Below are positions 13,616 to 18,950 of a stretch of DNA of 64,000 nt, piece after piece. The translations under genes were made by a program, and so were the position numbers. This DNA comes from Escherichia phage GADS24. How positions within the stretch are numbered: the first letter of the stretch is position 1; each line of letters starts with the position of its first letter. Where the stretch lies: the sequence record OQ703618.1; one strand, 5' to 3'. The notes beneath the pieces were generated by a model. The model did not search any database. It had not been told where the DNA came from and saw only the letters and a list, made by a program, of their open reading frames with translations.

Positions 13616-13822
13616 TTACTCACCTTTTGCAATTTTATCCATAACGATAGCGATTAAGCCGATTAGAAATGCTACTACCAATGAGATAGAATTTTCTGTT
13701 GTTGTCAGTAGTCCACAAATGAATCCTACAAACATCGAAAAACTAAAAGCCATTGAAGCAATTACTACAGCAACATTACGAATCAGTTCAGCGCGTTTCA
13801 TTTTATTTCTCCATTTACTCAT
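13616..13822 (-). CDS. small membrane protein (68 aa)
   Basis: Single long hydrophobic segment; promoter cassette directly upstream. Confidence 0.4.
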   Translation of the reverse strand: MSKWRNKMKRAELIRNVAVVIASMAFSFSMFVGFICGLLTTTENSISLVVAFLIGLIAIVMDKIAKGE

Positions 13823-13871
13823 TTGTTTTGATAGGACTACTATAACATAATCCTATCAGCATGTAAACTAC
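13823..13871 (-). promoter_or_regulatory. PeSL-like early promoter/stem-loop cassette
   Basis: GTTTAC (rc 13863-13868), 17 nt, TTATAG; TGATAGGACTACTATAACATAATCCTATC inverted repeat. Confidence 0.5.
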
Positions 13872-14159
13872 TTACAGAAGAGTTTTTGCAATAATTTTAA
13901 GCTGAGCTACAGAAATATGCTTAGCTTTAAACAGTGCAGTCTCTTCAGCCGGAGAGATAACAATAGTAGCGCCATCTTTCTTAGCAGACCATCCATCCCC
14001 TAAGTAAACAGTACCTTTTACTTCTTCGCCGTCAACCAGACTAATCATTGGTTTACCCTCACGTCCTTTATTTGCTTTAATAACTTCGGAAGTAAGGGTT
14101 GCTTCGGTCAGAGTAGAAACGTTAGCATCAGGTGATATAAATTCTTTATAGGTTTTCAT
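13872..14159 (-). CDS. internal protein I-like (IP with capsid-targeting N-terminus)
   Basis: Begins MKTYKEFIS; 95 aa like T4 IPI precursor; adjacent to 57B as ipI is in T4. Confidence 0.6.
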   Translation of the reverse strand: MKTYKEFISPDANVSTLTEATLTSEVIKANKGREGKPMISLVDGEEVKGTVYLGDGWSAKKDGATIVISPAEETALFKAKHISVAQLKIIAKTLL

Positions 14160-14236: not shown

Positions 14237-14922
<686 letters not shown>

Positions 14923-14926
14923 TTTA

Positions 14927-15661
14927 TTACCTTAAGATTGTTTCAATTTTAGAATAAAGCTCTTCTAAAGAGCCGTCGTTTGTAATAACTAAATCGCCTT
15001 CTTCAATAGGCAACCCAGCTTCTGTAATATGTTTATCGGTGGATTCCGTACCAGAGCGAACCACATGAATAACTGTAGCACCCATCGCTCTAGCGGTTTC
15101 CATTTCATGGACTTGGCGTGTATCGGTTACAACATAGTAATCGAAATCACTTCCAATATAATCCATATAGTTTAATGCAAAAAGTTTAACCCAATACATA
15201 CGGTCAAATAAATTAACGACAACATCCGTACCGAGGGCTTGCATAAGACGGCGGATTGACCATGTGTCGTTGATATTATTTATAGCTTCACGCAGGGCTT
15301 CATATGGTTTAATATCTAGATATGAATACCCACCTTCTAATGATGATAATACTTTAACATTATTAATTGGTAAATATTGACTTTGTAAATAAATTAGCGC
15401 TTCTTCCATTAATTCAATAACATCCAACTTATTGATATTTAATGGTGTTTCACGGTCGTATCCAACACCTTCGAAGTATTCATATTTCAACTCAGTGAAT
15501 ACATCAGGGTTTTCGGCATGTCTACGCCCCCAGGCTATTGCTAGAGCGTCTTTAATAGGATATGCCAATTGGTATTTTACGGATTTAAAGTTTGAATTGA
15601 TGTAATCAGCAGTGGTGTCTTTACCACTACGTTTGATGCCGCTTAAAAAGATTAGCTCCAT
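14927..15661 (-). CDS. 1: deoxynucleoside monophosphate kinase
   Basis: MELIFLSGIKRSGKDTTADYI...DRMYWVKLFAL...HEMETARAMGATVIHVVR matches T4 gp1. Confidence 0.9.
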   Translation of the reverse strand: MELIFLSGIKRSGKDTTADYINSNFKSVKYQLAYPIKDALAIAWGRRHAENPDVFTELKYEYFEGVGYDRETPLNINKLDVIELMEEALIYLQSQYLPINNVKVLSSLEGGYSYLDIKPYEALREAINNINDTWSIRRLMQALGTDVVVNLFDRMYWVKLFALNYMDYIGSDFDYYVVTDTRQVHEMETARAMGATVIHVVRSGTESTDKHITEAGLPIEEGDLVITNDGSLEELYSKIETILR

Positions 15662-16299: not shown

Positions 16300-16393
16300 A
16301 AGCACCTCAAAAACGCTTTAATAAAAATGCAGTATAATGGTTTTAGGTCTCTTCCATTAATCTGGTTCAACAGAAGAACAGAAGAGAATAGAA

Positions 16394-17215
16394 TTAAGAT
16401 TTCCAAACAGTATTCGCAGAGAAACGTTTTCCTTTTGACATAAACTGCTGAGTAGGTAACATGATTATGTTAGCCCAGTCTTTAGGAGCTATTTCTGTTA
16501 TTGTTCCTCTAATGTGGCCTGGCAGGTATGCTTTAATCATTTTGTCGGCACCTTGAAATCCTTTCACCTTGCTCCAGTCTATCTTCAACTTTGTGTTATT
16601 AGTAATAGTAGTTGTGCTAGCATATTGCTTCAGCAATTCTTCAAGAAACTGTTGACGTGCTTTAGGTGGGATATAGTGCAAGTTTAACCCATACATCAAA
16701 TTATGTTTACCTAATCCTAAATAAATAATCAAAGGATATCGGTCCCAATACGGCAGAGTATCTTTATGTTTAGCATCATACACGTAAGTATAAATTTTGC
16801 CTGGCGTAGGCTTGACTACTTTATGACCTTTTACACTTTTCTTAATTGTTTCAACAAACCACTTAGATGATTTGTTGTTTACTGCTGCGCCTTCATTTCT
16901 AATCTTTTCTCGTATTGAACTGCGAAACGAGTTTATCATCAGAAGTTGACGTTCTTGCTTATTGAGTTTATTTTTAGGTTTAGATTCAAGCGTTTCAATT
17001 TTCTGTGCAGTCTTAATAGATGATGCATATCTAGACATTGCAGATGTAAACGACGAGTATTTTATTCCTTTTGATTCTGCAAATGCTTTTGCAGTGATTC
17101 CTTTCTCTTTAGCTTTCTTGTATTCTAATCCTATCTCAATCCATTTTCTTTCATTCATAGACTGAGCAATCTTAGGGGCTTGTACGCCTTCAGATATAAT
17201 TTGGAATATGCTCAT
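16394..17215 (-). CDS. 2: DNA end-protector protein (gp2-like)
   Basis: 273 aa (T4 gp2 about 274 aa); basic; positional. Confidence 0.7.
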
Positions 17216-17862
17216 TCAACTTTCCTCATTTTACAATTATCACCATGCCAACGTTTATAAGGCGCAGGTTTACATTCTATACCGCAGTATTGGCATATCT
17301 TATTAGGAGTATTTAAGTATCCTAATCTCATGTTTTCCTTTTCTTCAGGAGTTCTATTTCGTCCTGTAAGAGTATTTTTTATTTTGTCTCTAATCTCTTT
17401 AGGCATTATCCTGCCTCGGCCTGCTTTACCTATTTTAGCTTTATGCTCTTCGGATAATTTCTTACCCTTCTTAGCTAAACTCATTTTCTTTTTAGATTCT
17501 TCGGAAATAGGACCTAATTTTCTACCTCTGGATGAATCGCCTATTCTTTTTCGCACATCAATAGAACGGCCTCGTCCTCCCTTTCCTCCTAGGTCTATAT
17601 TATATGTATCTTCTCTATCCACAAAAGATTGATCAACTAATTCCGCTTCCTTTTGGAAAGCCATTTCTTCATTTAGTAATTCGTCACCGGTATCATACAC
17701 ATATAATACTTCTTTTACAAAATTATCTAATCCGTATTTAGCATGGGCTTTTAAGATAATTTTACCTGTTCCTTTATAAGAATCATCCGGATTATTAGTT
17801 TTATGAACACCTATATAAATTTTATTATTTACGATGTTAGTTATTTTATATACAGTATACAT
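17212..17862 (-). mobile_element. free-standing GIY-YIG homing endonuclease (Seg/I-TevI-like) inserted between genes 2 and 4
   Basis: N-terminus VYKITNIVNNKIYIGVHKT (GIY...YIG); Lys/Arg-rich NUMOD-like repeats; C-terminal Cys/His cluster; T4 has no gene here. Confidence 0.8.
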
Positions 17863-17863
17863 A

Positions 17864-18313
17864 TCATCCCTTATATCCTAAACGACGTAAACCGTCTTCT
17901 GTGAGAATTCTGAATTTAATATTTCTTTTAGCCGCTAATGCTGACGCCGCTTTCCATTTATCACAGTTCACAGACCACACGTAGATCTCGTTCATATAAC
18001 GTTTCTTTGCTGCGGTAGTAAGATTTGCAGGCTTAATAGGTGGTTGAGTTTCTTTCTTTGGTTTTATTTCTACAAAGAACTCTTGACCTGATGCATCTTT
18101 CATCCATATATCCATAAAGTATCGACGTTTTTTACCTTCAGCATTACAAAAATATGGAATTACTGCTGTTTCACTACCCCATGCAATAATTTCTGGATTT
18201 TTATCCAACCATTCGAAAAAGAATTTTTCCCAGTTTGAACGATACGTTATTTTGGTATGGTCTCCACGGTATTTTTTTAAATTTTTTGGGACCCATTTAC
18301 CAGAGTAGGCCAT
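17864..18313 (-). CDS. 4: head completion protein
   Basis: MAYSGKWVPKNLKKYRGD...ILTEDGLRRLGYKG matches T4 gp4; start moved to ATG 18311-18313 with AAGGAGGA SD. Confidence 0.85.
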   Translation of the reverse strand: MAYSGKWVPKNLKKYRGDHTKITYRSNWEKFFFEWLDKNPEIIAWGSETAVIPYFCNAEGKKRRYFMDIWMKDASGQEFFVEIKPKKETQPPIKPANLTTAAKKRYMNEIYVWSVNCDKWKAASALAAKRNIKFRILTEDGLRRLGYKG

Positions 18314-18324
18314 GTTGTCCTCCT

Positions 18325-18347
18325 TATAAATAGTATTATTATTTATA
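18325..18347. promoter_or_regulatory. divergent late promoters: TATAAATA plus strand 18325-18332 (gene 53), minus strand 18340-18347 (gene 4)
   Basis: Exact TATAAATA on each strand, each 25-45 nt upstream of its start codon. Confidence 0.55.
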
Positions 18348-18374
18348 CCAATTTCATATTGGAAGGAGACTATC

Positions 18375-18950
18375 TTGTTATTTACATTCTTCGACCCAAT
18401 AGGATATAGTGCTAAAACAGTTGATAAGAATGCACCTACTATTCCTATGACAGACATATTTCGTAACTATAAAGAGTACTTTAAGCGTGTGGCTGCCAAT
18501 TATAGATTACGTTCTTATTATATTAAAGGCTCTCCGCGTCCTGAAGAACTAGCAAACATAATTTATGGCAACCCTCAATTATACTGGGTCCTTTTGATGT
18601 GTAATGACAACTATGATCCGTATTATGGTTGGATTACATCTCAGGAAGCAGCGTATCAAGCTTCTATTCAGAAATATGCTAATGCCGGCGGCGACCAAGT
18701 TCTTTATCATATCAATGAAAATCGTGAGAAATTTTACAATTTGGTTTCATATCCGGACGAGCCTTTAGTGTGGTATGATAAAGGTGATGAAGCTCGTAAG
18801 TATCCGCAATATAAAGGACCTTTAGCTGCAGTAGATACTTATGAAGCGGCAGTATTAGATAATGAAAAACTTCGTAAAATAAAAATTGTTGCAAAAGAAG
18901 ATATAAACTCGTTTATCACAGATTTGATTCGTGAGATGGAGATTGCATAA
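18375..18950 (+). CDS. 53: baseplate wedge protein gp53
   Basis: MLFTFFDPIGY...WITSQEAAYQASIQKY matches T4 gp53; apparent TTG start 6 nt after GGAAGGAGA. Confidence 0.85.
   Translation: MLFTFFDPIGYSAKTVDKNAPTIPMTDIFRNYKEYFKRVAANYRLRSYYIKGSPRPEELANIIYGNPQLYWVLLMCNDNYDPYYGWITSQEAAYQASIQKYANAGGDQVLYHINENREKFYNLVSYPDEPLVWYDKGDEARKYPQYKGPLAAVDTYEAAVLDNEKLRKIKIVAKEDINSFITDLIREMEIA

Follow-up and report, generated by a model that had tools for sequence, protein, structure and literature searches.

The window—the whole 64-kb stretch of phage DNA that was analyzed—holds a free-standing gene between gene 4, its upstream neighbor, and gene 2, its downstream neighbor, all three being read from the minus strand (Table 1). 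We refer to this gene as HEG, for homing endonuclease gene; its product begins with MYTVYKITNIVNNKIYIGVHKT. On the upstream side, the stop codon of gene 4 (TGA, 17864–17866) is followed by a single nucleotide (17863) and then directly by the ATG of HEG (17860–17862). On the downstream side, the stop codon of HEG overlaps the start codon of gene 2 as ATGA (17212–17215), which corresponds to a junction of −4 nt. The original prediction had described a 216-residue reading frame wedged between genes 2 and 4 with junctions of 1–4 nt and with nothing comparable in T4. All of this is present as described: the frame on the minus strand, the 1-nt spacer to gene 4, the 4-nt overlap with gene 2 and—in a comparison of the 2–4 junction—the abutting T4 genes 4 and 2, which overlap by 1 nt. 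The start of gene 4 lies most likely at 18313, giving a protein of 149 residues, because this start yields a T4-like N-terminus (MAYSGKW...), agrees with the annotation of most relatives, and suits the late promoter motif at 18340–18347; the frame given by the ORF finder, which runs to 18457 (197 residues), is an upstream extension of it.

No Rfam family, group I introns included, matches the region 16300–18500 at E ≤ 1. Hence, this lack of an intron match and the junctions of 1 nt and −4 nt mark HEG as a free-standing gene. No paralogue of HEG is found elsewhere in the 64-kb window. Over a 2-kb segment, the window matches Escherichia phage HX01, a Mosigvirus from the RB69 group, with 99.3% identity, and phages ChristianSchoenbein and p000v with 98 to 99%. 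The HEG protein is 100% identical in HX01, p000v, and ChristianSchoenbein, whose records label the product as "(putative) homing endonuclease".

Table 1 Features of the gene 4–HEG–gene 2 locus, with positions in the window
Feature	Position	Strand	Basis or remark
Gene 2 (DNA end protector), downstream neighbor	16394..17215	-	273 aa; annotation of relatives
Free-standing Seg-like GIY-YIG homing endonuclease gene (HEG)	17212..17862	-	216 aa, ATG start; ORF listing and PHROG 314
C-terminal C2HC zinc-finger module (...YKRWHGDNCK)	17215..17304	-	conservation and model
Shine-Dalgarno-like GAGGAAA of gene 2, located in the 3' end of HEG	17221..17227	-	read from sequence
Linker of five NUMOD3-like basic helices, aa ~100-184	17311..17565	-	Pfam and AF2 model
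GIY-YIG catalytic domain, Seg type, aa 1-96	17575..17862	-	profile alignment to 1LN0, Foldseek, BLASTP
Gene 4 (head completion protein), upstream neighbor, probable host of the target site	17864..18313	-	annotated in HX01 and relatives
HEG-linked diverged tract, last ~28 codons of gene 4	17864..17948	-	putative co-conversion tract and/or immune target site
Shine-Dalgarno-like AAGGGA for HEG, in the last codons of gene 4	17867..17872	-	read from sequence; putative translational coupling
T4-type late promoter motif for gene 53, back-to-back with that of gene 4	18325-18332	+	motif scan
T4-type late promoter motif TATAAATA, upstream of gene 4	18340..18347	-	motif scan

The late promoter motif upstream of gene 4 is the probable source of a transcript that covers gene 4, HEG, and gene 2. 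Motifs of this type have 19 matches in the window versus 8.3 expected. None of them lies inside gene 4 or HEG, and the back-to-back pair between gene 4 and gene 53 represents the only ones nearby. Neither sigma-70-type promoters nor terminators show enrichment around HEG, and the sigma-70-like sites hence give no evidence for a promoter of its own. The Shine–Dalgarno-like motif of gene 2, which HEG supplies here, comes from the 3' end of gene 4 in phages without HEG. An RNA structure hiding the ribosome-binding site of HEG was considered as well and rejected: the AUG is covered by a weak AU hairpin that lacks significance (z = −1.5), since 14 of 200 shuffles equaled it.

The HEG protein matches PHROG 314, "homing endonuclease", with E = 1.7e-50, and 284 database homologues are found at E ≤ 1e-5. 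For the comparison with T4, all seg genes and I-TevI/II were taken from the T4 record; BLASTP yields 41% identity over 147 residues for SegD (E = 6e-29) and 44% over 95 residues for SegC (E = 4e-25). The PHROG, homologue, and SegD matches place the reading frame far outside what chance would give. A GIY-YIG N-terminus had been read from the letters of the sequence, with an alignment to SegA–G and I-TevI proposed as the check. This alignment places SegD and SegC closest among the T4 proteins, and residues 1 to 96 bear the full signature that is common to T4 SegA–E, spread across the whole N-domain: Y-x-Y-x-ITN, KIYIG-x-H, ND-x-Y-x-G-[ST]-G, KYG, E-x-E-[LI]-V, YN, and GG-x-GG. By sequence, HEG groups with SegC, SegD, SegA, SegB, and SegE, and it has an I-TevI-like catalytic core.

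The catalytic residues can be placed by a profile of 63 homologues, which aligns to the I-TevI catalytic domain (1LN0) with E = 0.0024; a phmmer search of the PDB with the single HEG sequence returned no match, and only the profile reached I-TevI. In this alignment, Y5, Y16/G18, E72, and N88 of HEG correspond to Y6, Y17/G19, E75, and N90 of I-TevI, as the claim of a GIY-YIG domain demands. Hereby, the GIY motif takes the form VYK (Y5) opposite IYQ (Y6) of I-TevI, with Y5 invariant in a 20-sequence alignment of the lineage. The YIG motif (Y16-I-G18 opposite Y17-V-G19), the catalytic, metal-binding glutamate E72, and the asparagine of motif E (Y87-N88 opposite Y89-N90) are invariant in the 63 homologues. 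The segment around Arg27 in motif B of I-TevI falls into a 6-residue gap of the HEG profile alignment. T4 SegA–E show this gap too, and H20, D27, Y29, G31, and G33 are common to HEG and SegA–E. Curated GIY-YIG models stay under their cut-offs, with 21.1 bits against 25 for SegE_GIY-YIG of Pfam (PF19835) and 44.9 bits against 56.05 for the group I intron endonucleases of NCBIfam (TIGR01453).

An AlphaFold (AF2) model of HEG, built on the alignment of the 63 homologues, has a pLDDT of 92. Its residues 1 to 96 form the strands 2–9, 15–21, and 48–56 plus helices, i.e., a predicted I-TevI-like fold. The best Foldseek matches of the model are 1MK0 and 1LN0 (probabilities 1.00 and 0.99, target TM-score 0.55), and structures of the I-TevI catalytic domain are its sole significant neighbors in the PDB.

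Beyond the catalytic domain, basic NUMOD-like repeats and a C-terminal Cys/His cluster had been suspected, and both are borne out. The NUMOD3 model of Pfam, with its cut-off at 20.4 bits, reaches 20.7 bits over two stretches of the protein, and the AF2 model shows five regularly spaced helices at residues 101–111, 121–131, 138–148, 155–165, and 172–184—mostly with a pLDDT above 90. The cluster reads C190-x2-C193-x12-H206-x3-C210; in 20 homologues of the same lineage and site, C190, H206, and C210 are invariant and C193 is nearly so. AF2 predicts a β-hairpin and a helix for this module, which is found in 34 of 120 Seg-like homologues and is absent from T4 SegA–G in the alignment. When the finger alone, taken from three homologues, was scanned against Pfam, nothing but noise below the threshold came out (E7, zf-FCS, and YhfH). 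The recurrent finger is an uncurated DNA-binding module that may merit a description of its own.

The segment matches 678 phage records, about 150 of which, from Mosigviruses, are 95 to 99% identical in the flanks, and HEG is carried by five of these 678 (three phages). Records without HEG align as two pieces, with a net deletion of 646 nt. The gene is thus sporadic rather than conserved in all T-even phages, T4 itself being without it. This distribution, the Seg-type domain, and the lack of an intron support the reading as a free-standing homing endonuclease that the original prediction had put forward.

Outside the three carriers, the same site is occupied by diverged relatives. Mosigvirus ECO111 5-P bears a homologue of 240 to 245 residues at this site; between the window and ECO111 5-P, gp2 is 100% and gp4 94% identical, as against 45% for the HEG proteins. 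The ECO111 5-P protein is nearest to the allele of Salmonella phage STP4-a, a Gelderlandvirus (63%). The order gene 4–HEG–gene 2, with homologues 41 to 66% identical, is also found in Gaprivervirus P479, PSD2001, and vB_YenM_P8, in Lazarusvirus and Acj61, in Pseudotevenvirus RB16 and GAP161, and in Gelderlandvirus STP4-a. Three metagenomic contigs with the same junction occupied encode HEG proteins 73%, 64%, and 62% identical to that of the window. Within each genus the gene is again sporadic, with three carriers among 62 Gaprivervirus records and one phage among the Gelderlandviruses. Phage Kimel has a third allele at the gene 4/gene 2 site, the copy of phage Berthold is broken by one frameshift, and phage fPSFA bears an unrelated endonuclease gene (PHROG 681) in this slot. 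An IMG/VR scan with the lineage alignment retrieved distant Seg-like genes only, with 31 to 55% identity, and these served as a contrast set: gene 4 or gene 2 is nearby in 4 of 80 of their loci. HEG belongs to a discrete lineage that sits at one junction in at least five genera.

The copies of HEG in the carriers differ at four nucleotides, all of them third codon positions and all (4/4) synonymous; HEG is under purifying selection. This bears on the possibility that HEG is a stranded or decaying remnant, whose frame is intact and whose product is no longer an active or mobile endonuclease. Such a state would be compatible with a single old acquisition, as there are only three closely related carriers with one tract boundary in gene 4 (see below). 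Also, an equivalent of Arg27 of I-TevI is not identifiable by alignment, and a frameshifted copy exists in another genus. Nevertheless, a remnant would not be expected to retain every residue that is invariant across the 63 homologues, a full-length frame with the zinc finger and the NUMOD3 array intact, exclusively synonymous substitutions among carriers, and a sequence that is modeled with such confidence. We consider a remnant improbable, and an intact endonuclease gene remains the better description.

A footprint of past transfer is visible in gene 4. The window and the two other carriers were aligned with four HEG-less Mosigviruses over 10 kb. At the very end of gene 4, over 85 nt, the window departs from the HEG-less phages at 27 to 30 of 85 positions (32–35%), compared with a background divergence of 1.3% (binomial P ~ 2e-31), and the HEG-bearing phages depart from one another at 1 of 85 positions. 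The remainder of gene 4 differs from that of HEG-less phages at 5 to 12 of 365 nt, and gene 2, which is identical right to its ATG, at 3 to 4 of 822 nt. Since the diverged tract contains just four amino-acid changes, most of its differences are synonymous. It resembles the gene 4 end of the metagenomic contig that encodes the 73%-identical HEG protein—both have ...SALA..., ...FRIL..., and AATATTAAATT-AGAAT in common—a likeness that fits a donor flank dragged in by gene conversion. On its own, the tract is compatible with such a donor flank and with a site mutated for immunity. The three Mosigvirus carriers have one common tract boundary and may hence go back to a single acquisition and not to repeated homing.

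The one-sided footprint, on the side of gene 4 and not on that of gene 2, recurs independently in two other genera. In Gaprivervirus, the whole gene 4 of P479 is about 25% diverged from that of VR7, compared with 1 to 8% for gene 2. In Gelderlandvirus, STP4-a matches S16 at 99.5% identity except for a 721-nt insert and the end of gene 4, whose final 18 nt carry four synonymous changes. The changes that accompany the ECO111 allele lie exclusively in the final ~27 nt of gene 4. As the footprint lies in the 3' end of gene 4 and leaves out gene 2, a recognition or cleavage site in the last ~20 to 85 nt of gene 4 is more likely than one exactly on the junction. The stretch between the cut and the insertion point must be converted in each homing event, which makes a target in the 3' end of gene 4 the simplest reading. 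A short likeness between the 3' ends of HEG and gene 4 (GGAAAGG...) was also considered as a target-site duplication. As the window itself shows little of this likeness, a common need to provide gene 2 with a Shine–Dalgarno motif was preferred as the explanation.

Gene 4 and HEG might also have moved as a cassette by ordinary homologous or illegitimate recombination, or by trans-homing through another nuclease, with the HEG product uninvolved. T4-like phages recombine heavily, and the unrelated endonuclease gene at the junction of fPSFA means that the site may simply be permissive. A permissive site does not, however, readily account for one lineage with a conserved finger that tracks one site through five genera and three metagenomic contigs while distant Seg-like genes sit elsewhere, and the one-sided tract beside the insert is the classical footprint of homing. 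Transfer without participation of the HEG product is hence very improbable in our view.

We therefore favor, with a probability of roughly 80% for the reading as a whole, that the reading frame represents a T4 Seg-type homing endonuclease gene, intact and free-standing, with the architecture, expression, and homing mechanism outlined in the following. The anatomy of the gene, its family, its sporadic distribution, its fidelity to one site across genera, the one-sided conversion of its flank, and a phylogeny incongruent with that of its neighbors are seen directly; cleavage, the exact target, the immunity of carriers, and the timing of expression we infer from them. The GIY-YIG domain would be tethered by five NUMOD3 helices of the minor-groove type to the C-terminal C2HC finger. 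HEG would share one transcript with its two neighbors, started at the late promoter ahead of gene 4, and would be translated from the Shine–Dalgarno motif in the last codons of gene 4. When a carrier and a HEG-less relative infect the same cell, the HEG protein would cut the DNA of the relative where gene 4 meets gene 2, either within the 3' end of gene 4 or beside it. Recombinational repair off the carrier genome would then copy HEG and the adjacent end of gene 4 into the recipient. The carrier copy would escape cutting, presumably because the insertion and the diverged end of gene 4 destroy the site.

An active nuclease need not be a homing one. HEG might be domesticated, either as a weapon against the DNA of competitors (marker exclusion) or as a regulator of the gene 4–gene 2 operon, and, being placed within a late operon, it is under the control of the phage. 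T4 SegD cleaves DNA but is not known to drive the homing of its own gene, and membership in the Seg family is hence no guarantee of mobility; I-TevI also acts as a repressor. For SegB, a role in phage counter-defense is reported (PMC13096335). On the contrary, HEG is far too sporadic for a needed function. The HEG-linked conversion tracts in three genera and the two unrelated alleles in phages with identical gp2 both speak for repeated transfer into the site. A domesticated role is thus unlikely, and homing remains the favored explanation.

Public records already annotate HEG, which is an ordinary example of the Seg type. The original prediction is refined in two respects: the target probably lies in the 3' end of gene 4, and HEG belongs to a site-faithful lineage found in several genera. 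No paper on an endonuclease between genes 4 and 2 came up in our literature searches. The general understanding of homing endonucleases is unchanged by these data, which add a clear natural case of homing without an intron in a phage other than T4. Natural donor/recipient pairs are at hand in HX01 and the HEG-less Mosigviruses, in STP4-a and S16, and in P479 and VR7, and the candidate target is narrowed to ~20 to 85 nt. The exchange of the gene 4 3' end together with HEG—of the whole gene in the Gapriverviruses—also matters wherever structural genes are used as phylogenetic markers.

More tentatively, and with the odds somewhat against it, the site between genes 4 and 2 in T4-like phages may be read as a long-lived "homing arena" of a Seg-like lineage with a C2HC finger. 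This lineage appears to have tracked one site across Tevenvirinae, Twarogvirinae, and Pseudotevenvirus, and the finger that defines it is described by no curated family. At least two deeply diverged allele classes, of ~215 and ~245 residues, would replace one another at the site, in competition with an endonuclease gene unrelated to them. At every invasion, the recipient would have the C-terminus of its gp4, or all of gp4, overwritten. If this holds true, a selfish element and not the fitness of the phage sets the allele structure of an essential virion gene.

Among known systems, T4 SegD and SegC are the closest T4 paralogues of HEG by sequence. They have the signature of the Seg N-domain in common with it and are likewise free-standing between phage genes. 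However, SegD is flanked by genes 23 and 24, SegC is located downstream of gene 5, both are without the C-terminal C2HC finger, and SegC comprises only 140 residues compared with 216 for HEG. I-TevI provides the catalytic fold and the same Tyr, Tyr, Glu, and Asn residues. Both proteins also follow a "beads on a string" layout of a catalytic domain, an extended linker that includes a NUMOD3-type helix, and a C-terminal DNA-binding module. I-TevI is, on the other side, encoded in an intron (the td intron of T4), whereas HEG is without one. The two share 17% identity, with the Arg27 segment of I-TevI missing from the alignment, and where HEG ends in a C2HC finger, I-TevI has a terminal helix-turn-helix with an internal Cys4 finger.

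The mechanistic analogues are rather T4 SegF and SegG, which are free-standing GIY-YIG genes inserted between essential genes. SegF and SegG cut the neighboring gene of a HEG-less phage away from the insertion point, so that the intervening markers are co-converted. The one-sided tract in gene 4 fits the SegF/SegG model. Their identity to HEG is 19 to 23% and their targets are genes 56 and 32; SegG is the subject of a title in the reference list of PMC10448857. Orthologues at the same site have annotations that go by similarity only and are, in the other genera, 41 to 66% identical to HEG: D299_gp029 of HX01, RB16p187, STP4a_135, gp127 of KARL-1, and QWQ55980 of P479 all have the site, the architecture, and the C2HC finger of HEG.

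The C-terminal end of the endonuclease (residues 187-216) carries a Cys/His module with the pattern C-P-x-C-x(12-14)-[RK]-[WY]-H-[GF]-[DN]-N-C-K, and of 120 Seg-like proteins 34 have it, in many contexts (homologues P0018-P0099). A Pfam scan of this module gave no family match; the module has the look of a so far undescribed zinc finger associated with nucleases.

The same-site endonuclease gene of Acinetobacter phage Berthold is disrupted by a single frameshift after ...AHTGK. Its C-terminal half, including the zinc finger, is intact and read in another frame. The gene may be decaying, or the frameshift may be an error of sequencing within an A-run.

Further nuclease genes are found around gene 4 and gene 2. 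In the Gaprivervirus-like Shigella phage fPSFA, exactly the same slot between these genes is filled by a 242-aa Cys-rich protein that is unrelated to the window endonuclease; it has a hit to PHROG 681 'endonuclease' (E=2.5e-29) and a weak one to the DUF4379 treble-clef finger. Gapriverviruses bear a second endonuclease gene, MobB-like (HNH), immediately 3' of gene 2—so that gene 2 of P479 is flanked on both sides by nuclease genes. Between genes 5 and 53, P479 contains a 636-nt ORF, which is absent from VR7.

Coordinates of the features discussed, in the window or in the compared phage loci (L numbers)
Feature	Sequence	Position	Strand
Mosaic block, probably near internal-head-protein genes	window	13807-14128	
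Mosaic block at gene 57A/gene 1 boundary	window	14728-14928	
Endonuclease C-terminal module	window	17215-17304	
gp4 match to PF08722	window	17864-18313	-
Gene 4 5' extension	window	18313-18457	-
Late-promoter pair	window	18325-18347	opposite strands
242-aa slot protein	fPSFA, L023	1953-2681	
MobB-like gene	P479, L004	3469-4128	
MobB-like gene	L022	3332-3988	
636-nt ORF	P479, L004	263-898	
Disrupted endonuclease gene	Berthold, L029	1192-1837	

Over the whole window, the T4 late-promoter motif is enriched, with 19 occurrences observed against 8.3 expected. Two such motifs, TATAAATA, lie back-to-back with 8-nt spacing in the gene 4/gene 53 interval. The mechanical ORF of gene 4 runs an extra 144 nt 5' of the T4-like start, which takes it into this divergent promoter region and the first part of gene 53. 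Among the public records, a20 and PTE-Eco05 are included in those that carry this long, 594-nt gene 4 together with a shortened gene 53, while others give the 450-nt version.

Two sharp-edged blocks in the window, diverging by ~23% (gene 57A/gene 1) and by 30-48%, stand out against Mosigviruses that are otherwise 97-99% identical; judging from how relatives are annotated, the latter block is probably close to the internal-head-protein genes. Both are mosaic alleles with no relation to the endonuclease.

The neighboring gp4 itself matches the N-terminal domain of the TnsA-like endonuclease family (Pfam PF08722, E=4.9e-20), to which gp4 homologues from metagenomic contigs are also assigned, and some records name gp4 'head completion nuclease'.
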